This document shows positions 5,627 through 63,125 of a stretch of DNA of 64,000 bases, one piece after another. The stretch lies in sequence record MT446396.1. One strand, given 5' to 3'. Position numbers and translations under genes: made by a program. A model generated the notes under the pieces. The model ran no database searches. It was given only the letters and a program-made list of their open reading frames with translations, and was not told the origin of the DNA. Source of the DNA: Escherichia virus TH22. Each line of letters begins with the position of its first letter. The first letter of the stretch is position 1.

Positions 5627-8600
5627 TTATTCAATCCATTCAAACTTAACGGATTTAGTGGTCGGGTCTGGGATGATGCGCACGTTACCGATACGTAACC
5701 AATCGAGAACGGTTAAGTTCCCCATCGTTGTGTTGTCGGCCGGTAATGCACCAACATCCTCTGCAGACGGAGGGTTATCCGCGGTGTAAACCATTGCGAA
5801 AGTCGTCCATGCAGATTTATTTTTCTGCCACGTACGAGTATAACGAATAGTACCACCGTTCAATCCAGTTGGATAGCAAACCCAATCTTGATAGCACGAA
5901 TCCAGCGTATTACCAAACTGAGTCAATGTACCAGGATATTTAATTTGTTTATCACGAACCGAATAGTCAAACCAGGTTCCGCGCAGTTTTTGGCCAGAGC
6001 TACCTAATACTTCATCACCGAGTGTACCATCGTCATTACGATAACGAATAGCAGGCGAGGCGAAAGTTCCATTTTCAGTTAACCAACCAGAAGCATTCCA
6101 AACTTCATCAGTTACCCCGGCAGGTTTAGTTTGAACTGTATCAATGTTTACCTGACGTTTTAACTTCATTGTCCAATAACCAGGGAACTGGCTATAAGTC
6201 GGTTCATCATTGATATCGACAGACCAGAAGCCAACAGTATCTGTAGTCGGAGCTTGTGTGATAAGACTTGGTTTCGTACCGAATACACGGACCGGAGCAT
6301 TCACACGGAGCACACCAGACATTGTATCACCGGCTTGGTTAACAAAGTTTCTATCTACAATCTCAACAGCGTTTTTCTCGGTCAGGACTTTAAATGCGCC
6401 GCCACCATTTGCTATGATATTACCAGCATCAAGAGTTTTAAGCACTAAATTCTGCGAGTTATCACCCAGAGCCAGAGTTGCACCAGAAGCTTCACCCGTT
6501 GTGGTTGCGATAGTACGACCATTTAGAACGTAATTATTTTTGGCTTGAACATCATTTCCGGCGCTAAGGTTGTTCAATACAGCAGCATTACCCGAGGCGG
6601 TGTTTAATGTCAATACGTTAGTCGTATCGCCAATAGTCATTGTCGTTCCGGTGGAAGGAGCGGTGATTTTCCACTTGTTAGTTCCGTTAACAACGTTCAC
6701 AGTTCCGAACGTCGAAGTGCCAGCCGTTACATCAGTAAACACTGCAGTGCTCGTCGATACAACCGGAGCAGATATATTTGTCTGTTTGGTAAGAGTTAAC
6801 ACACCTTCAACAGTCTGAGCAATATCACGACGAATAAACTGGGTCGAATCAAGGTTATCCAGTTTTTCAGCATTAACAGCCATCGCATTTATCGGTAAGA
6901 AGTTTTGCAATACGCGGTTTAATTCGTAAGGCGAAACTGCATAACCAGATTTTGAATAGCTAACCAGTTTACTTGGGTCCGGAGTATACACACCATTTGC
7001 ATATGTAAATCCTGCACCAGTCGTTGTAGTTGCGGCCGAAGTAGCTGTACCAGAAGATAAACGAACAAATCCACGTAGGGTTTCAGATGCTTCCCAGGTT
7101 GTTTCCGTTTGGGCAATATATTTCAGCGCCGACGGACTGATGGCCAAGACTTTTGATGTGCCTGCTGTTGCTTCTGTGTTTGTCGCGATGCGAACAATAC
7201 CTTCGGCATTTTCAGTGGCTTTTTTCGACATCAATTTAAGCGGAGTAACGATTGTTTTATCGTCAGTGCCGGTATTGACTTCACCCTGAGTCGCTAATCT
7301 TGCCGTACCACGTTGAGTCTCATTTGCTTCAAGAATATTCAGGCTATAATGGTCCCAGAGCGTCCCTGTTTCTACTAAACCACTTAATGCATTAACAGAA
7401 GTGCGAGCAGTATTATTAAATCTAGTTTTAATTTTTAATGGAGTTGAGATACGAGTATCATCGGTTCCAGTATCAAATTCTGATTGCGTAGCAATCTCGG
7501 CTATGCCGGTTAACGTTTCTGATGCTTTACGGTCATTTAACGTTTTAGGAGTCACAGCTCTGGTATAATCGGTTCCTGCATCCGTTTCTACTTGAGTTGC
7601 AATCTCGATTAAACCGATACGGGAATCAAGAGCAGTTTTGCGATGCAACATTTCTGGAGTAACGACTGCGTTTGCCCAGCCAGATTGAGAAGTACCAGCA
7701 ATTACTTCACTTTCAACCGCAAGAATAACCGCACCTTGTTGAGTGTAAGTAGCTTTGTACTGGTCAAGAGCTTTCGGAGAAACAACCAGATTAACCGTAT
7801 TTTTATTATAAACGTTTGTACCATTTAATTCACGCGAATCAGCAGGAGTTGCACCGGTTGTTGAAACGTAAGTTACAATACCAGATAGCGATTCCGAGCC
7901 CTGGCGCGCTTGCAGTTTCTTCGGAGTGATAATTGTGGTATCATCTACACCTGCATCGGTTTCTTGCTGTGTGGCGAGTTCTGCGAGCCCACGTCTCGTT
8001 TCTGTTGCCGTACGTTCATTGAGTTTTTTCGGAGAAATAATTACATCATCAACAAATGCAAAATCACTGTTCTGATTTACTTGAGCAGTCGTTGCGATTC
8101 TGGCAATACCTCGTTGGTTCTCTTTAGCAACACGGTTAGCCAAAGTCTGAGGAGTAATTGCGAGTTCTTTCTCTGGGTTATTTTCATGGTCAACGTTTGC
8201 CTGAGTCTGGTTTGCCAGAGCAATAACACCAAGACGCGCACGCGTGGAATCATTTAATGAGTCAACTCGTTCAACAGTCGGAACGTTTTGAGCAACAACC
8301 CAATAACTTGTTCCAGACACTTCATCTTCTGCATATGACAATTCAATAACTGGAGTATAACTGATGTTGCCATTAAAGGTCAATGAATCAACCATCACCC
8401 AAGTTGTATCCGGTGGATACTCGGAACGTTTAGGGAATTGCAGCAATTTAATGTCAGATGCAATCTTATCGCCAACAGCAGCTCTTATATTAACAGTCTG
8501 TGATTTACGGAGATAGTTCAATGCAATTTTAACAATGTCGCCTTGCAAAACATCCGTTGGTAAATCGATATTAATCGTTGCTGGAGTTGAGTTATCTTCG

Positions 8601-45588: not shown

Positions 45589-45613
45589 TGCTTTAATTTT
45601 ATGGCTGTATAAT
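45587..45613 (+). promoter_or_regulatory. middle promoter (AATGCTTTA MotA box, N12, TATAAT) followed by ggttctagaccc element
   Basis: MotA box overlaps gp25 stop; -10 followed by a near-palindromic GGTTCTAGACCC. Confidence 0.5.
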
Positions 45614-46673: not shown

Positions 46674-46901
46674 TTAGAAATCTTCGTCTTCATCATCGTC
46701 CATATCCTCAAGCTCGGCGCGTTTACCGGCAAGAGCATCACGAACACTGATATCATCGGAATCTTTTAGTTCAGCTTCTTTGCTGCGTTTTTTATAATAG
46801 CTTTCCAACTCCTTCAGACCGTCTATGGTCTGGCAGGAACCAATCTTAGCCATAAAGCCTTCAATTGATGCTTCGTACATAATTTCTTCAAAGGATTTCA
46901 T
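46674..46901 (-). CDS. uvsW.1: UvsW.1-like small acidic protein
   Basis: 75 aa with acidic C-terminus, start overlapping uvsW stop (TAATG), as in T4. Confidence 0.7.
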   Translation of the reverse strand: MKSFEEIMYEASIEGFMAKIGSCQTIDGLKELESYYKKRSKEAELKDSDDISVRDALAGKRAELEDMDDDEDEDF

Positions 46902-52037: not shown

Positions 52038-52067
52038 AAAAAGGGCCGCAAGGCCCTTATTCTTTTT
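52035..52067. terminator. bidirectional terminator (A-run, AGGGCC-GCAA-GGCCCT, T-run)
   Basis: Seen in sequence between convergent rnlB and the gene 24 paralog. Confidence 0.6.
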
Positions 52068-53340
52068 CCAGCGGTGGAAGTTTAACACCAAGATAAGAAC
52101 TCAATTGACTTTGGTTAGCCATCTTATCCATATCAGCTCCATCAATAAGGCGAGCTTCTTTATCATCTTTAGCAACGGTGTAAGGGTTCGCAGTCAAAGC
52201 ATAACGAGCTAACAGTGCAACCGTAGGCTGTAAGCTTTCAGGGTCAACAATAACCTTGAATTCCCCAACCGAGGTATCACCCTCATCATCAACTTCGCTA
52301 AGCCCTTCCGTATAAGGCGCATAATACAAAGATGCGACCGTCTGACCTTCACCCATATCTGCATTTACACCAACAATAACATAATCACATGGACTATTCA
52401 TATCAGCGTAAAGAGGCAAACCGTTCTTCAGAACACCATAGGCCAATTCATCCTGGTCTTCCTTTTTCTCAACCCAGCCAGAAGCGGCTAAAATAGCTGC
52501 ACAACGGGAAGAAGCAACCGCATATGTACCAGCAAACGAAGTCTGACGTTGAACTGCAGAATTCATTTCACACATATAATAATACAGGGTTCGCGCGCGG
52601 TCCTGCGCGTTATCATATTTCGGGTCAGTAAGATTCAATACACCTTTTTCCGAAACACCTTGCACCTTGAAGCGGGAACTAACAGTAATAAGGGATTGCA
52701 ATACATCCTTATTAATTTCCTCTGCCATTTGAATGCCGAGAATATTATCGATGAAGTCTGTTGCATCAAAACCGTTTGCTTCCAGGTCCTGGGCAAGCTC
52801 GACAGTTAAAGAAGTTTTCAACTTTCTGGATTTAACTTCAGTCTGCCATTTATCGATACGAAAACCAGCTTCAGCAATTTCAGGATGCCCCTTTTCAAAT
52901 TTATCAGTGAAAGCAGCATCTGACATCATTCTTATATGCCCAGCAGCAATGGCTTCAGAAATAACTTCACCTAAATCAGTTTCGAGTGTACCGGCGAATG
53001 GGGATGCTTCCAAAACTTTGAACACAACACTTTCAAACTGGAACATATCGCCGACTGCATAAGCTTCGTCTTTGTTTGTAAATTCTGGAATATTCTTACG
53101 CTCGAACATACCAATCTGACCTGCAAATGTTGCTCCACCGAGATAAGTCATTTTATCATCTGGGTTCAGAACACGAACACCATACAGCGCTGCAACAGGC
53201 TGGGTAGTTTTCTGTTCGGCCACGAGCGCTTTAAAAATTCGTTTATTCGTGGCTTGAGTATAAGAAAGCAAATTAGGACGGGCGACCTGGTTGGCCGCCG
53301 TTAATGTTGATTCGTGAATTAGTGCATTAATCTTTTGCAT
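52057..53340 (-). CDS. second, diverged copy of head vertex protein gp24 (gp23/gp24 fold)
   Basis: 427 aa; colinear similarity to the adjacent gp24 (MQKINALIHESTLT... vs MAKINKLLRESTIT...; shared KSRKLKT..TVELAQDLEANGF, NKDVLQSLITVS, YAPYTEGL, ANPYTVAKDDKEAR). Confidence 0.8.
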   Translation of the reverse strand: MQKINALIHESTLTAANQVARPNLLSYTQATNKRIFKALVAEQKTTQPVAALYGVRVLNPDDKMTYLGGATFAGQIGMFERKNIPEFTNKDEAYAVGDMFQFESVVFKVLEASPFAGTLETDLGEVISEAIAAGHIRMMSDAAFTDKFEKGHPEIAEAGFRIDKWQTEVKSRKLKTSLTVELAQDLEANGFDATDFIDNILGIQMAEEINKDVLQSLITVSSRFKVQGVSEKGVLNLTDPKYDNAQDRARTLYYYMCEMNSAVQRQTSFAGTYAVASSRCAAILAASGWVEKKEDQDELAYGVLKNGLPLYADMNSPCDYVIVGVNADMGEGQTVASLYYAPYTEGLSEVDDEGDTSVGEFKVIVDPESLQPTVALLARYALTANPYTVAKDDKEARLIDGADMDKMANQSQLSSYLGVKLPPLEKE

Positions 53341-54621
53341 TTACGCCTCATAAATGATTGGCGGAAGTTTAACACCGAGCAGATAAGACATATTGCTCTG
53401 ACCGGCCATTAAATCCATATTGGTTGCATCGATAATACGAGCTTCTTTATCGTCTTTAGCAACGGTGTACGGGTTAGCTGAAAGTGCGTAACGAACCATC
53501 AGAGAGATAGATGGCTGCAAGCTGTCTGGGTCCACAATGACCTTAAACGCACCAACGTGCTCTTCATCATCCAAGTCCAGGCCTTCGGTATAAGGAGCAT
53601 AGAAAATTGCGCCTACGACTTCGTTTCCGCCGTAATTTTCTTTAACACCAACAGTTACATAATCCAATGGACTGTTAACATCACAGAATACAGGGAGGCC
53701 ATTAATCAAATAACCGTACGCTGTTTCGGGGAGCCACTGTTCGTCTTCTGGTCTGTGTTTCAACCAACCAGAACCGGCCAACATAGCAGCAACACGGCTA
53801 GAGGCAACAACAAAGGTACCGGAATAAGATGTAGTTTTCTGAATTTCGGAGTTCATTTCGCAAACCAGTTCGTACAGTTTACGTGCACCTTCTGGGGCTG
53901 CATCGTATGTTAAATCGATGGTGCCATTGTCAGAAACGCCAGTTACTTTATAACGCTTGGAAACGGTAATAAGAGACTGAAGAACATCTTTGTTAATTTC
54001 ATCTGCCATAATAGTGGCAAGCAGGTCTTCTAAGAAAGCAGGAGCATTAAAACCATTTGCTTCCATATCCTGGGCAAGTTCAACAGTTAATGCAGTTTTC
54101 AATTTACGTGTTTTAACCGGAGCATTCCATTTGTTAACCTGGAATACAGCATTGCTAATTTCAACATCACCGGCTTCGAATTTTTCAGTGTGTGCGGCAT
54201 CAGGAACAAGGCGAATAGTCGATGCAATAAGACCTTCTTGCAGAACATCAGATAACACTGTTTCTGTGGTCGATGCAAATGGATTATCAACCAGAGCTTT
54301 GTAAACGATATTTTGGTATTTTATATATTCGCCTTTAGCCACAGGCTGAGTGGCTGTAGTTAATTCTGGAATAGTTGTGCGGTCTTTAGAACCGACTTCG
54401 CCTCCATAAGTAGCGCCCGTCTGGAAACTGAATTCATTATCAGGAGTAAGATATTTAACACCATACAGTGCAGCAACAGGTTGGTTAGTACGTTGTTCAG
54501 CGATGATATCGCGGTAAATCAATTTAGTCGTAGCGCGGGTCAAAGCAACAAGATTCGGGCGGCCCAAGGAGTTGCTGGTAGTAATAGTTGACTCGCGCAG
54601 TAATTTGTTAATCTTTGCCAT
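53341..54621 (-). CDS. 24: head vertex protein gp24
   Basis: 426 aa; close match to recalled T4 gp24 (MAKIN.LLREST.T.SNS.GRPNLVALTRATTKLIY.DI.A.QRTNQPVAA). Confidence 0.9.
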   Translation of the reverse strand: MAKINKLLRESTITTSNSLGRPNLVALTRATTKLIYRDIIAEQRTNQPVAALYGVKYLTPDNEFSFQTGATYGGEVGSKDRTTIPELTTATQPVAKGEYIKYQNIVYKALVDNPFASTTETVLSDVLQEGLIASTIRLVPDAAHTEKFEAGDVEISNAVFQVNKWNAPVKTRKLKTALTVELAQDMEANGFNAPAFLEDLLATIMADEINKDVLQSLITVSKRYKVTGVSDNGTIDLTYDAAPEGARKLYELVCEMNSEIQKTTSYSGTFVVASSRVAAMLAGSGWLKHRPEDEQWLPETAYGYLINGLPVFCDVNSPLDYVTVGVKENYGGNEVVGAIFYAPYTEGLDLDDEEHVGAFKVIVDPDSLQPSISLMVRYALSANPYTVAKDDKEARIIDATNMDLMAGQSNMSYLLGVKLPPIIYEA

Positions 54622-54733: not shown

Positions 54734-55015
54734 ATGAACAAAGCAACTTTCCTTCTGAACACCTTTAAAAAATTGGAAATTGAAGTTATTACATTGGTCA
54801 ACAAATACCCAAATGGTGTTAATGGTAATGCTCTGAACAAACTAGTTAAAAAATATGAAAACTTAGCATATGACACTGATTTCTGGTGGAATGGTAATTA
54901 TTCTACTCACACTAAAGATAAAAATGGTAACTGGTTGAAACTTCAAGAAAACAATGTTAACTTCAGAGACCTCATCAAGCGCCGGGTAGAAGTTCATTTA
55001 AATGGTATGGTATGA
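54734..55015 (+). CDS. hypothetical protein (93 aa), early-promoter moron between genes 24 and 23
   Basis: RBS GGAG; bracketed by early promoter and terminator; opposite strand to flanking late genes. Confidence 0.55.
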   Translation: MNKATFLLNTFKKLEIEVITLVNKYPNGVNGNALNKLVKKYENLAYDTDFWWNGNYSTHTKDKNGNWLKLQENNVNFRDLIKRRVEVHLNGMV

Positions 55016-58564: not shown

Positions 58565-58818
58565 TATTCATCGTCCTCATCATCATCTTCGTCATCGTCG
58601 CCTTCGTCGGCGTCATCAGATTCTTTTTTGTCTTTCTTTTCTGCTTTACCGTCTTCATCATCTTCTTTAGGCTCTTCGCCTTCAATCATGATGGAACGTG
58701 CAATTTCAATCTTACGTTCTTCAATCAAACTACCGCATACTGGGCCAATGTTTTCAGCAAAATATTTGCGAACGGCTACGAGGTCGTTTGATTTAATGGC
58801 TTCAAATAAATCATCCAT
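58564..58818 (-). CDS. 67: prohead core protein gp67
   Basis: 84 aa with poly-acidic C-terminus; motif [14 protein letters not shown] as recalled for T4 gp67. Confidence 0.75.
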
Positions 58819-60392
58819 TAGAAATCCTCTTCTTCTTCTTCAGGGTTTTGGAAACGAGCCTCTTTGGACTCCAATTCAATTTGCTTAGCTTCTTGATTAA
58901 TTTCTTCATCAGACATCTGGAGGAAGTCCTTCATAGCCGTTTGATGCGAAATATATTTACCGATAAACGGTTCAGCCATCGTTAGCATATTGATTCTGCG
59001 TTCCATGATTTCTGCGTCTTTCATTTCGGTGAAATAGCTATCACGGTTGAACGTAACTTTAATATTATTTAGTTCCTTTTCCCATTCCTCTTCTGAAATA
59101 ATTTTTTTCAGGATAAGGTTGGTTTTAAGCGGGTCGAGGAAAACTTCTTCAAATTTATTCTGTAGCTGCCTAATCCATTTAGAGAAATTCAATTCATCGC
59201 GAGTAATTGTCGCGCCCGCATCAAACATAACGCCGCTGTTTTGGTCATTAGGGATACGAGATAATGGAATTCGGAGAGCCTGATATAGGTTGTTCTTAAA
59301 CCAGCGAACATCGTCCATATCCGACATGCCTTGTGCACCCGGGAGTGTATCAACTTCGGTGACTGCTTTACCATCACGACGTTGCAACCAATAGTCTTCT
59401 GTCATTGACATGTTGTGCTGTTGGTTTTTGATTTTACCCGTGGTTGCATCATATACGACACGGTTTTTCATCGTATTCATAATATGTTGCATGTGTGCTG
59501 CTGCTTTACGAGACGGCATATTCCCAGTATCGATATAAAAGACTCGGCGGTCTGGGGCACGAGTTATACGATAAATGACTAAAGCATCTTCTAATAGTTT
59601 TAATTGGTTTGCAGGTTTAATTGCTCGTTGTAAGTATCCGATGATATTCTTGCCACAGCAATCGAGTAATCCAGAATGCGCATATACAATCGCCGCACGA
59701 GGAATTTTTATTTTAGTACCTGCTTCATATATACGACCATCGGCACAATAACTTTCGTGGCCAGTATCGTATACAAAATATTCTCTGTAACCGTCGACAA
59801 TTTTTGTGCCATTTTCCATGCGTGTAACGATTTCACGGATGAACTGGATTTGTCTTGGGTCAAGGCGACGAAGTTCTTGAACTCCATCTTTAAGTTTTGA
59901 AGGGTTGATAATTTTGTGGAAGAAAATTCGAGAATCCACATACCAACGTTTAAAGTGGTCAGAACCTTTACGCTCGAAATTAAGGAGGTTATTAACTTCC
60001 GCGAATTCTTCGAGGATTCGGTCTTTAATTTTCTGACTAAATTCGGTAGCATCAAGATTAAGAGCTACAACATCTTTACCGTCTTCAAAAACGATAGCAT
60101 CAGACACAATTTCTTGCACCGCGTTATCAACTTCATAATTATTTAGTAAGTTGCGGTAGGTGTCAATTAATTCCCTGGTATTTTTTACTTCAGGTTCATT
60201 ACTCCCGAACATCTGTTGCATCAATGCATTATACGGGACGTTTTGTTCTTGTGACTCAATTTCGCGAGCCCCATCGTCAAACTTCGGCCCGGTCATTGAC
60301 TCTAAATTATTTTTTTCTTGTTGCTTATATTCTTGTTCATCTTCTTTAGCCCAAGGCTTAAGAAAATTTAGTATTGTGTTAAAACCTGCCAT
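58818..60392 (-). CDS. 20: portal vertex protein gp20
   Basis: 524 aa; strong match to recalled T4 gp20 ([48 protein letters not shown]). Confidence 0.95.
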
Positions 60393-60440
60393 TAGAGTCT
60401 CCGAAGTTTGGGAAATGAGGCCGAAGCCTCATAATAACTT

Positions 60441-60448
60441 TATTTATA
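60441..60448 (-). promoter_or_regulatory. late promoter (TATAAATA) for gene 20, followed by a leader hairpin (gaggc-cgaa-gcctc)
   Basis: Seen in sequence between genes 19 and 20. Confidence 0.5.
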
Positions 60449-60449
60449 C

Positions 60450-60941
60450 TTATTCCCACCAGTCAATTGCGAACGTTGCTTCGAACGTTTCAATTTCGTT
60501 GTTACTGTCCCAATCCATCTGGACTTCCCCAACGTTGGTTGGCCACATGCCGGTAATAACAACTTCTTTCGTAACGGTCTTACCATCACGATGGAACTGA
60601 CGAACAGTAGCGGTTTTCTTATAATCAGCAGGAGCTGCACCGGTGATTTCGTTAGTCATACCGTGACACAGGTTTTGCCAATCAACAATTGCTTGACGAA
60701 CTTTATGAGCATCGTCGTTATAAATCGTAATAGTCCAGTCATCAAATGTACGGTCGCCCGCAACGTTGATTTTACGGTTCATGTAACCGACAGGAACTTT
60801 TTCTACAATGCCTGCTGGCATCGGGGCTGCTTTACAATGGAAAGCAAAGTTTTTACCCAGGAATGGGATTTCGACTTCGAACAGGTTAGGGCGAGCAAAG
60901 TCGCCGGATTCGAAAGCGCGTGTGATATCGGTCAACTCCAT
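60450..60941 (-). CDS. 19: tail tube protein gp19
   Basis: 163 aa from internal ATG with AGAGG RBS; strong match to recalled T4 gp19 (DVTRAFESGDFARPNLF.VEI, WPTNVGE.Q.DWDSNNEI.TFE). Confidence 0.9.
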   Translation of the reverse strand: MELTDITRAFESGDFARPNLFEVEIPFLGKNFAFHCKAAPMPAGIVEKVPVGYMNRKINVAGDRTFDDWTITIYNDDAHKVRQAIVDWQNLCHGMTNEITGAAPADYKKTATVRQFHRDGKTVTKEVVITGMWPTNVGEVQMDWDSNNEIETFEATFAIDWWE

Positions 60942-60993
60942 TAAGGAATCCTCTTTATAGACACAGGTCGCGCGAACGCGTCCCTGATGCATG

Positions 60994-61001
60994 TATTTAT
61001 A
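60994..61001 (-). promoter_or_regulatory. late promoter (TATAAATA) for gene 19, proximal copy
   Basis: tatttata on plus strand, 52 nt upstream of the gene 19 ATG. Confidence 0.5.
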
Positions 61002-61072
61002 CTAGGTAATATGATTCATCATCTCAAGATAATGGCTTCCCAGAATCAACCACAGGAGCCCGTAGAACCGAT

Positions 61073-61100
61073 TATGCTTTTATTTATATCACTGTATAAT
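61073..61100 (+). promoter_or_regulatory. middle-promoter-like cassette (ATGCTTTT box ... TATAAT-ggttctacgg) oriented antisense to gene 18, flanked by a perfect 10-bp inverted repeat
   Basis: Near-identical to the promoters at 45587 and 50905 but no plus-strand gene downstream. Confidence 0.4.
61081..61088 (-). promoter_or_regulatory. late promoter (TATAAATA) for gene 19, distal copy
   Basis: tatttata on plus strand. Confidence 0.45.
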
Positions 61101-61145
61101 GGTTCTACGGTTTCTAACTGATTAATTCATTCTAAGCGATGATAA

Positions 61146-63125
61146 TTATTGTGGCCCAATCAGCTCATCAAAATCAGCACCAGTGCTAGTGGCTACGAAG
61201 TTAAGAGTGATGTAGTTGATGCTGCGCGCAGGTTTAAAATAAATGCTAGCAACAAACTCATTTCGGTCTATGACCGACGGGGTGTTGTTAGTAGTATCAC
61301 AAACTACACGACCTTCATAAATGCCACCAAGTGCACGAATACCATCCAAGTATTGAGAAGTTTCCATACGGAATGATGCACGAGTGAAGTTATCGTTAAG
61401 CTCAAACAGTTTATATTTGGATGCATCACCGATATTTTTCTTCAGCATATTCGTAAGACGACGAACGTTAATATGGTCCATCGGAGATGGAACTTTAGTT
61501 GCAGTCTTATCACCATACAGAACAAAACCATCACCACCTGCGAAACCAACAACCGGGTTGATAGCTTCTTGATACATGCGGTCACGTTGGGTCTGACGTG
61601 GTTCAACAGCCAATTTCAGAACGTTCAGAATCTGACCGCGGTTATAACCAGCCGGAGACATCCAAGGCTGAGAAACATCATCAGTACGAGCACACAGACC
61701 AGCCATATCAGCTGCCAGAGGAACCCAACGGTTAACGTCATTATATTTATCATACTGATATTTATAGTTGCCATCAATCGCTGCATAAGTCGTGCTGATA
61801 TTCATGTTATCAGTATCAAATGCGCCAGCACCTGTACGCCAGTCAATCAGGTTATCCACTGCACGGGTCAGAGGAACGTTAACCAACAGACCTTTCGGCG
61901 GGGAAATAAATGCCAGACAATCCTGACGTTCGTCAGCAATAGAAACCACGTGTTTCTGAACAGTGGAAGCGGTTGCATCACCTTCACCAGCTACTGCACC
62001 AGCGATAAGCAGGTTAATATGCAGTGCTTCACGGTCAGCAAACAGGTCCCAACCTTGCATCAAATCACCAGCGGTAATCTTATCGTTTGCAGAAATACCA
62101 CCTGACAGATTGATGATACCACTGAAGCCTGCAGGCCAGTTGCGAGATGTTGCATAGATGTAGTTGGAAGTACCTTTTGCAAAGTAGTCATCCAAGTAAA
62201 TGTTATTACCGTAAACATCTTTTTCGCCCTGCTTGGTAGACAAAACAACGTTTTCGACGATTGCACCATCGCGGCGAACGATAATTGCATATTGGTTTTC
62301 AGACTGTGGGCCATAGTTAAACACGGCACGAGCCACAGAAGCACGCGTTCCGCCGCCCGGGAAAATATTCAGATTTGCAGCTGCGCCTTTTTCAAATTCA
62401 GCTTTAGATACGATTTCAACTTCCAGAGTCGAACCGATTTCACCTGGATAAAGAGCAACAACACCTGGCATTGCATATTTTGCTAATGATGCCTGGAATT
62501 CCAGAGAAGTAATTGCTTCTTCACTATTTTCTGCTTCAGTCAACAGAATGCCAGAATCGGTAACAATTTTCCCAACGGTGATGGTACCAGATACGCCAGA
62601 AGAAGTGGTTGTAACTTCTGCAGTCCATGCACTACCTAAATTAGGATACTGGTTAATAGTTTTGGCAAATGCAATAATCTTATCGGTAGGAATAAAGATT
62701 GCCTGAATTTTACCATCAACGTCGACCTTGGTCACACGGCCAGCCGGTTCAACAACAGTCTGGTTGTGTTTAACCTGAATAACATCACCGACAGCATAGT
62801 TTGTACCAGCAGTTACGATGGTAGTTTCAATATTGCCAGCAATAGGGGATGCGTTTTTAGCTTCGTCACGGTTAACAACACGTACAGTACGGAGGTCGTT
62901 ACCATATTGCAGGAAGTTCATCCCACTCATAAAGTAATCTGCTGTTTCATTATTCGGACCACCAAACAAATCAACAAGTTCAACTTCGTTTGTAATTTGA
63001 GTTACCTGGAAAGCTGGGCCCCACTGGAATTTACCAACCAGCGCCGCACGACCCGTCGCGTTACGAACAACAGTGCTTTGTACCGTTGTTTCTTTGAGCT
63101 CAATGCCCGGGGATAATAAAGCCAT
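61146..63125 (-). CDS. 18: tail sheath protein gp18
   Basis: 659 aa as in T4; very high similarity to recalled T4 gp18 (LLSPGIELKETTVQSTVV ...). Confidence 0.95.
   Translation of the reverse strand: MALLSPGIELKETTVQSTVVRNATGRAALVGKFQWGPAFQVTQITNEVELVDLFGGPNNETADYFMSGMNFLQYGNDLRTVRVVNRDEAKNASPIAGNIETTIVTAGTNYAVGDVIQVKHNQTVVEPAGRVTKVDVDGKIQAIFIPTDKIIAFAKTINQYPNLGSAWTAEVTTTSSGVSGTITVGKIVTDSGILLTEAENSEEAITSLEFQASLAKYAMPGVVALYPGEIGSTLEVEIVSKAEFEKGAAANLNIFPGGGTRASVARAVFNYGPQSENQYAIIVRRDGAIVENVVLSTKQGEKDVYGNNIYLDDYFAKGTSNYIYATSRNWPAGFSGIINLSGGISANDKITAGDLMQGWDLFADREALHINLLIAGAVAGEGDATASTVQKHVVSIADERQDCLAFISPPKGLLVNVPLTRAVDNLIDWRTGAGAFDTDNMNISTTYAAIDGNYKYQYDKYNDVNRWVPLAADMAGLCARTDDVSQPWMSPAGYNRGQILNVLKLAVEPRQTQRDRMYQEAINPVVGFAGGDGFVLYGDKTATKVPSPMDHINVRRLTNMLKKNIGDASKYKLFELNDNFTRASFRMETSQYLDGIRALGGIYEGRVVCDTTNNTPSVIDRNEFVASIYFKPARSINYITLNFVATSTGADFDELIGPQ

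Follow-up and report, generated by a model that had tools for sequence, protein, structure and literature searches.

What would a promoter of the middle type be doing inside a late gene block, on the strand opposite to the late genes and apparently pointing at no gene of its own? The question is raised by the intergenic region between gene 18 (tail sheath) and gene 19 (tail tube) in a stretch of 64,000 nucleotides of Escherichia virus TH22 (record MT446396.1), referred to here as the window. Late promoters on one strand, middle-promoter elements on the other, and an inverted repeat are crowded together in this region. The original prediction, which drew attention to the arrangement, offered two explanations for it: an antisense RNA directed against the late transcript, or a footprint of cassette insertion. 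By examining the elements themselves, their distribution among T4-like phages, and the genes that have been inserted beside them in relatives, we arrive at a different emphasis. From the observed elements, their statistics, their conservation and the missing downstream gene, we infer an active orphan start of the MotA type, together with particular start sites, a role for the hairpin and a function for the RNA; we assign a probability of about 0.55 to the reading that such a start makes a non-coding transcript before the late genes are expressed.

Genomic setting and the late strand

Sequence comparison and taxonomy place the window in a T4-like phage of the genus Gaprivervirus (the VR7/SP18 group). 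Over positions 60400-61500, identity is 100% with Escherichia phages TH55 and UPEC07 and 92-99% with SP18, VR20, VR25 and VR7. In the list of open reading frames, gene 18 (659 aa; 61146-63125, with its stop codon at 61146-61148), gene 19 (60450-60941, with its ATG at 60941-60939) and gene 20 (58818-60392) follow one another on the minus strand, genes 18 and 19 being separated by a gap of 204 bp. The Shine-Dalgarno sequence of gene 19, GAGGA (60949-60953, minus strand), is invariant in 10 relatives.

Some features of the wider late block and of its relatives are recorded here for their own sake. A plus-strand ORF of 93 aa (54734-55015) lies between the gene 24-like and gene 23-like late genes, the position that the antisense homing-endonuclease gene segD holds in T4. 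Two adjacent minus-strand ORFs of 427 and 426 aa (52057-53340 and 53341-54621) stand where T4 has a single gene 24; the pair looks like a duplication of the vertex protein, and the annotation of Marfa likewise lists two tandem capsid vertex proteins. The record of phage DCP80 (PQ671644), a genome of only 141 kb, has a run of N at positions 466-500 of the extracted locus (L005) and unrelated plus-strand ORFs at the expected place of gene 19; it probably reflects a mis-assembly or a deletion, and is unfit as evidence of gene order.

The late strand of the gap is well furnished with signals. Two late promoters of the form TATAAATA had been assigned to gene 19, and both are exact: a proximal one at 60994-61001 and a distal one at 61081-61088, each on the minus strand, such that the plus strand reads TATTTATA. 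This motif occurs 19 times in the window against 4.2 expected, with 15 of the 19 copies on the late (minus) strand, and the two copies in the gap lie where members of the class should, on the coding strand upstream of a late gene. Of 76 tabulated T4-like loci, 43 have an equivalent of the proximal promoter; most of the distant relatives in the table with very short 18-19 gaps are without one. The T4 gap also contains two late promoters, including the proximal one, and a pair of predicted late promoters at this place is normal for T4-like phages. Near the proximal promoter, the leader of gene 19 folds into a stem-loop with a C(UUCG)G tetraloop (60961-60990, minus strand; loop 60973-60976), located at or near the predicted start of the proximal transcript; TH54 and TH57 have UACG in place of UUCG, and thus keep a UNCG loop, and the stem-loop may act as a stabiliser of the mRNA.

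Only Gaprivervirus has the distal late promoter; Dhakavirus reads TATAAAGA at that place, and Marfa has no late promoter there. In VR26 the distal promoter is kept, and it stands upstream of an inserted 227-aa gene. It is also the point at which the two strands become entangled, since it lies both in the loop of the hairpin and in the spacer of the plus-strand promoter described below, overlapping the MotA box by 2 nt. T4 late-promoter geometry places its predicted start at about 61075, so that its transcripts would be without the 5' arm of the hairpin.

A predicted MotA-type promoter on the opposite strand

Middle promoters of T4 combine a MotA box, (a/t)(a/t)(a/t)TGCTT(t/c)A, with its centre at about -30, and an excellent sigma-70 -10 element (TAtaaT) at a distance of 12 +/- 1 bp (Hinton 2010, PMC2988021). 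In such promoters the MotA box takes the place of a functional -35 hexamer. Elements of this kind are indeed present on the plus strand of the 18-19 gap, as first described, and point antisense into the 3' end of gene 18: a MotA-box-like element, ATGCTTTTA (61074-61082; consensus from PMC2988021), and a -10 hexamer, TATAAT (61095-61100), with a 13-nt spacer. The longer string TTATGCTTTTA at 61072-61082 fits the MotA-box consensus with a sole deviation at the last position (T, not A), and both the 13-nt spacing and the perfect TATAAT are as in a T4-type middle promoter. The G of the GCT within the box stands 19 nt before the -10 hexamer, a spacing identical to that of the T4 promoter PuvsY. A scan for sigma-70 -35/-10 pairs called none here on the plus strand, which fits a promoter of the MotA type rather than of the early type.

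The pattern TGCTTY-N12-14-TATAAT is found six times in the window, against 0.09 expected, and all six matches are on the plus strand. The remaining five lie upstream of plus-strand genes, and three of these five are, by comparison with T4, homologues of its mapped promoters PuvsY (the oriF homologue, 45589-45613), PrnlB (50907) and P34i (the oriG homologue, 7325-7350, within the gene for the long tail fibre), all on the plus strand. From the homologues at 45589-45613 and 7325-7350, both R-loop origins of T4 appear to be conserved in this phage. A MotA-like match at 46773-46798 (plus strand) lies antisense within a small minus-strand ORF.

The position of the start can be predicted with the help of T4. 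The mapped start of PuvsY in the T4 record (115371) has the context TATAAT-GAATCT-A, and the 18-19 element has in common with the window's PuvsY and PrnlB homologues the context TATAAT-GGTTCT-A. Homology with the mapped T4 start places the predicted +1 at A61107. With a start there, the right arm of the inverted repeat would become the discriminator and start site of the promoter. The predicted plus-strand RNA excludes the hairpin, and its 5' region shows no structure (z = 0.2). Since the plus-strand promoter and the distal late promoter stand back to back, their predicted starts are separated by about 32 bp.

These elements support a credible promoter of the MotA type directed antisense into the 3' end of gene 18, and we put the odds of its being real slightly above even. 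In one respect the original prediction overstated the case: the plus-strand sequence was called a near-exact copy of the middle-promoter cassette, but the 18-19 element has only the consensus elements and GTATAATGGTTCTA in common with the matches at 45589 and 50907.

Conservation among T4-like phages

One check proposed for the locus was its presence in relatives. An island of about 60 bp (61054-61113), defined by alignment, is found across ten Gapriverviruses, once per genome, and its variation in these ten is limited to three loop positions and one GA indel. By contrast with the island, its flanks (61030-61053 and 61114-61130) are strongly diverged between the window-type and VR7-type genomes, and the 40 nt downstream of the predicted start are variable in close relatives. 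VR26 retains ATGCTTTTATTTATA...GTATAATGG. A pattern scan of IMG/VR with the island core found VR20, VR25 and VR26 only.

A survey of 79 T4-like loci from IMG/VR extends the comparison beyond the genus. Antisense promoters shortly beyond the gene 18 stop are confined to lineages with long gaps (183-204 bp), namely Gaprivervirus, JS98-type Dhakavirus, and Klebsiella phage Marfa/F48 (Marfavirus), while gaps of the T4 type (105-125 bp) have a plain GC hairpin at that place instead. In T4 itself, the one relative that is well mapped, no middle promoter has been placed in the stretch from 75.4 to 109.8 kb (the late block), and none is seen in the sequence of its 18-19 gap. All three promoter-bearing lineages have GCT exactly 19 nt before a perfect TATAAT, and the spacers between these elements have diverged. 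Furthermore, the GCTG box variant of Dhakavirus, CGCTGTAA, which the 18-19 element of AnYang has, is the variant present in the PuvsY of AnYang, ATTGCTGTT, and the -10/discriminator pattern TATAATGG-N3-TA recurs at both PuvsY and PrnlB of AnYang. The PuvsY of Marfa has a slightly shorter -10/discriminator form, TATAATGGTTTAGG. Scans with 16-mers of the Dhakavirus and Marfavirus -10/discriminator gave one match per T4-like genome plus unrelated contigs; such a pattern is too strict to test the sharing of a promoter family, and the PuvsY and PrnlB regions were therefore read directly.

The geometry common to three genera, together with the lineage-matched box and discriminator, points to selection acting on the promoter itself, beyond the overlapping late-strand signals, even if overlapping late-strand elements could account for part of the conservation of the island. 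This bears directly on the possibility that the plus strand has no function at all, the island being kept for its late-strand roles and the likeness to a promoter being tolerated as a by-product or left over from a plus-strand gene since lost. It is true that the promoter elements are overlapped by the distal late promoter and by both arms of the hairpin; genomes of the T4 type manage with a plain hairpin and a late promoter; and T4 has segD antisense between late genes 23 and 24, so that such genes come and go. Nevertheless, this explanation is hard to square with a promoter geometry conserved in three genera, where the perfect TATAAT and the GCT at 19 nt persist although the spacer, the arms and the presence of a late promoter differ. 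It does not readily cover bases that are not required by the late-strand hairpin, nor a Dhakavirus box that is the variant of that lineage's own PuvsY, and we consider it rather improbable.

The inverted repeat and its hairpin

A perfect 10-bp inverted repeat flanks the plus-strand promoter, exactly where it had been described: the left arm, CCGTAGAACC (61060-61069), and the right arm, GGTTCTACGG (61101-61110), are exact reverse complements. The stem is extendable to 15 bp with one bulge, reaching 61075 on the left side. On late-strand RNA the right arm is the 5' arm and the left arm the 3' arm, and the fold that had been suggested as a check does produce a hairpin (-20.1 kcal/mol, z = -3.9). 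On plus-strand RNA the hairpin has a value of -25.9 kcal/mol, G-U pairs lengthening the stem. Perfect inverted repeats of at least 10 bp with a loop of at most 60 nt amount to 3 cases (5 seeds) in the 64 kb, against a mean of 5.8 seeds in Markov simulations; the repeat by itself is thus not rarer than chance, and its meaning rests on its position and on comparison.

Neither termination nor the masking of a ribosome-binding site agrees with the sequence. An intrinsic terminator on the late strand would have a U-tract, but the sequence after the stem is GCUCCUGUGG, the loop measures 21-31 nt, and the terminator scan made no call; past the stem on the plus strand there is a weak UUUCU only. No ribosome-binding site is masked by the hairpin, the 3' arm of which lies about 105 nt upstream of the gene 19 Shine-Dalgarno sequence and adjoins no ORF start. 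A search of Rfam gave no family match at E <= 1. There is no covariation, as both arms are invariant in the ten Gapriverviruses and the repeats of the three lineages are in different registers, and VR26 has lost both arms while retaining the promoter core. With the weak Dhakavirus version added to the missing covariation and to the state of VR26, the hairpin is moderately supported.

An inverted repeat surrounds the antisense -10 element in all three lineages, with arms that differ in sequence and in register. The Dhakavirus arms are GCTGTAA/TTACAGC within outer CCCAGGC/GCCTGGG, and make a weak hairpin in JS98-type phages (z = -0.9 when the inner stem is taken, -2.4 with the whole gap), while the Marfa arms, ACCTGAAG/CTTCAGGT, make a tight 14-bp stem (-23 kcal/mol, z = -5.8). 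In the record of PhiKpNIH-6, a terminator feature is annotated inside the matched region. In the late-strand folds of all three, the first hairpin past gene 18 has the -10 at its apex. Arms that are specific to each lineage, combined with this position at the apex, fit a structural hairpin of the late mRNA, the counterpart of GGCCTG...CAGGCC in T4, rather than the termini of a mobile element.

Gene 19.1 insertions and the mobile-cassette explanation

DNA has nevertheless been inserted next to the island, and more than once. In some relatives the 18-19 gap contains an additional gene, 19.1, on the late strand, and there are two types of insertion. The 201-218-aa type lies directly after the gene 18 stop in VR7, RZ, DCP80 and TH57, as well as in T6, QL01 and S16; BLAST breakpoints, annotations and alignment place the 201-aa insertion of VR7, RZ, DCP80 and TH57 at 61131-61146, between the gene 18 stop and the island. 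The 227-aa type is inserted at about 60942-61050, between the island and gene 19, in VR26 and some Dhakavirus-like genomes. Neither T4, AnYang nor the window has 19.1. Examples are found at positions 1238-1843 of the VR7 locus (L001), 1046-1729 of VR26 (L002), 1201-1806 of T6 (L012) and 1201-1821 of QL01 (L014).

All of these genes belong to phrog_5104, which has weak-to-moderate PHROG links to endonuclease VII (5e-7), HNH endonuclease (3e-6) and homing endonuclease (7e-5). Sequence and profile searches of Pfam, NCBIfam and PDB yielded nothing significant for 19.1, with sub-threshold matches only (for example, DUF4379). The invariant residues are CxxC...C and DH...N...NL...W..N, and by tblastn the family is present in 236 records of phages that infect many host genera; wherever the genomic context was checked, the gene lies between genes 18 and 19. 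From these sequence features, 19.1 probably represents an uncharacterised family of free-standing homing endonucleases, HNH or endonuclease VII-like. The VR7 gene has its own TATAAATA within a GC hairpin, GCGCGTA-TTTATAT-CATACGCGC, right before a Shine-Dalgarno sequence and a GTG start (L001 1855-1878); QL01 has a similar hairpin (L014, about 1165-1190) in which the exact late promoter is missing. As judged from the alignments, the island is a pivot that both types of insertion leave intact, and is not itself inserted DNA. It marks a junction at which HNH-like homing-endonuclease genes have been inserted repeatedly, on either side, without disturbing it.

These observations also bear on the suggested footprint of cassette insertion, in the form of a mobile regulatory cassette, whether PeSL-like or a miniature element with terminal inverted repeats. 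Some features speak for it: the promoter is bracketed by an inverted repeat, lineages with the element have a gap about 80 bp longer, the 19.1 indels abut the island on either side, and PeSLs are known as promoter-plus-stem-loop modules that mediate indels (PMC2839356, PMC4122927). However, the repeat arms occur once in the window and the island once in each relative's genome, the flanks (GGAGC and TTTCT) are not duplicated and no target-site duplication is visible at the island, and no empty site was found within the genus. The multiple copies, target duplication and empty sites of a miniature transposable element are all missing: neither further copies elsewhere or in unrelated phages nor clean empty sites in close relatives were found. 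The repeat arms vary by lineage, those of Dhakavirus and Marfavirus being their own. As for a PeSL, there is no UP-type early promoter and no -35 element was called, a MotA box being present there; the stem encloses the promoter instead of preceding it and is without G/C tracts; there is one copy, where PeSLs have many that flank ORFans; and the location is the conserved late core rather than a hyperplastic region. We therefore regard a mobile cassette as very improbable.

What the plus-strand transcript could be

The locus is best described, in our view, as the compact intercistronic control region of a T4-type late operon with an additional, orphan promoter on the opposite strand. On the late strand, transcripts reading through from gene 18 would fold into the 15-bp hairpin (61110-61060), which is likelier to be a protective or processing structure for 3' ends than a terminator, given that there is no U-tract. 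Gene 19 would then be re-initiated at two late promoters of the gp55 type, one within the hairpin loop (61081-61088) and one at 60994-61001, the transcript from the latter beginning with the UUCG-tetraloop hairpin. In the plus-strand direction, this island of 60 bp would be a MotA/AsiA-dependent middle promoter, starting at A61107 a few minutes post infection and transcribing antisense into the 3' end of gene 18. Because this promoter and the distal late promoter overlap completely, use at different times is expected.

The predicted orphan promoter points at no gene. No plus-strand gene lies downstream of it in the window, and no conserved ORF follows the predicted start, which makes a non-coding transcript, made before late transcription and thus of the 'anti-late' kind, the expected product; any benefit must then lie in the transcript or in the act of transcribing. 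Two candidate genes were rejected. A plus-strand ORF of 44 aa (60987-61121) is very likely not a gene, as its frame is broken by the 2-nt GA indel of VR7-type genomes. Past the predicted start there is only a 16-codon ATG ORF, which has no Shine-Dalgarno sequence and is not conserved. The records of some relatives annotate a hypothetical protein under 60987-61121.

One possible use of such a transcript is regulatory. Early 'anti-late' RNA is a classical phenomenon in T4, and a transcript made at middle times could pair with the gene 18 message at its 3' end or, in genomes that have 19.1, with the message of that gene, to delay or damp expression or to trigger processing. Its orientation and predicted start would give it full complementarity to the gene 18-side sequence, and promoters opposite neighbouring genes can create antisense transcripts, according to a review of T4 mobile elements (PMC2988022). 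The target, however, varies by genome (the end of gene 18 or an endonuclease gene) whereas the promoter is conserved, and the 40 nt after the start differ among close relatives. Nor is such an RNA obviously needed, since no sense-strand early or middle promoter was found in the block for it to silence; moreover, RNAs of the middle class do not last long, and the promoter is expected to fall silent at the onset of late transcription (PMC3016281). Literature searches on 'anti-late' RNA, antisense start sites in T4 and promoter predictions for VR7 found nothing usable. Regulation by antisense RNA seems to us an unlikely purpose for the locus.

Another possible use, which would make the promoter valuable independently of any gene product, is the priming of DNA replication. 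Most early DNA synthesis of T4 begins in regions of late genes, and the origins oriF and oriG consist of a middle promoter and an A+T-rich unwinding element, with little sequence homology to each other (PMC3016281). According to the T4 record, oriF is at PuvsY, while oriG lies inside late gene 34, its primer RNA running opposite to that gene. By analogy, the primer transcript of the orphan promoter would persist as an R-loop within the A+T-rich stretch of 40 bp that lies before gene 18, leading-strand synthesis would begin inside the late block, and gp45 would incidentally be loaded for late transcription. At the motif level, the locus has the MotA-dependent middle promoter that is part of a minimal origin of about 100 bp. 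An orphan promoter requires a function of just this kind, one independent of a gene product; homologues of both T4 origins are among the six motif matches in the window; only three plus-strand matches lie within late blocks, the oriG homologue among them; and the first 40 bp past 61107 are 70% A+T, at the 89th percentile of the window and equal to the first 40 bp of T4 oriF. Over 60-80 bp, though, A+T content falls to the 62nd-75th percentile, against the 93rd-98th at oriF-type sites, the region downstream of the Marfa promoter is 62% A+T and not A+T-rich, and the site is not at a strand-switch. We consider an origin of this type a doubtful but reasonable alternative. A little less probable still is its full form, in which the island is a previously unrecognised R-loop origin of the oriF/oriG class in the middle of the late block, common to Gaprivervirus, JS98-type Dhakavirus and Marfavirus and absent from T4, with the interleaved late promoter providing a switch from DNA priming to expression of the tail tube.

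If the plus-strand start is real, the late structural operon of these phages contains a defined pre-late promoter that serves no gene and has been conserved across genera. The locus would then offer a tractable site at which to ask what antisense transcription at middle times is for, be it antisense control, replication priming or help in late activation, and would illustrate how an RNA hairpin can share 60 bp with two promoters that exclude each other in time. Without a real start, what remains is an ordinary T-even intercistronic region.

Comparison with known systems

All elements of the locus are of known kinds, and what appears to be new, as read from the sequences, is an unannotated and unusual layout of nested, back-to-back promoters that is conserved in three genera and absent from T4. 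The counterpart by position is the 18-19 gap of T4, which likewise combines two TATAAATA late promoters with a hairpin immediately beyond the stop codon of gene 18, and in T6 gene 19.1 is inserted at the same point as in VR7. The T4 gap, however, is 116 bp long; its short GC stem, GGCCTG...CAGGCC, adjoins a late promoter rather than surrounding it; and its other strand has neither a MotA box nor a -10 element, and no mapped middle promoter.

A late promoter nested in a hairpin is familiar from I-TevI, I-TevII, I-TevIII, segB and mobE of Aeh1, where late transcripts lack the 5' arm and read-through transcripts form the structure (PMC2988022). The 18-19 element resembles these genes in its nesting, and the classic form is displayed by 19.1 of VR7. 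Unlike in the I-TevI type, the 3' arm of the hairpin at 61060-61110 is about 105 nt from the gene 19 Shine-Dalgarno sequence, is not followed by an ORF, and sequesters no ribosome-binding site. PeSLs, which are multi-copy early sigma-70 promoters placed after a terminator stem-loop in hyperplastic regions (Arbiol 2010; Comeau 2014; PMC2839356, PMC4122927), are similar in being small composites of promoter and stem-loop beside gene-sized indels; the 18-19 element differs from them in being single-copy, of the MotA type, inside its stem-loop, and in the late core.

There are likenesses, too, with the two T4 promoters that double as origins. PuvsY (oriF) has the same architecture, with 19 nt from GCT to TATAAT, a TATAAT-N6-A start and a first 40 bp that is comparably A+T-rich, but it drives uvsY and has a longer A+T-rich unwinding element, and its true homologue in the window is the promoter at 45589, not the 18-19 element. 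P34i (oriG, or ori34) is located within a coding sequence and has a transcript that in the end extends to the rnh gene on the same strand, whereas the 18-19 element is intergenic, has no same-strand gene downstream, overlaps a late promoter and sits within a hairpin. Like the 18-19 element, P34i is of the MotA type and antisense in a late structural block, with a transcript that runs opposite to a late gene.
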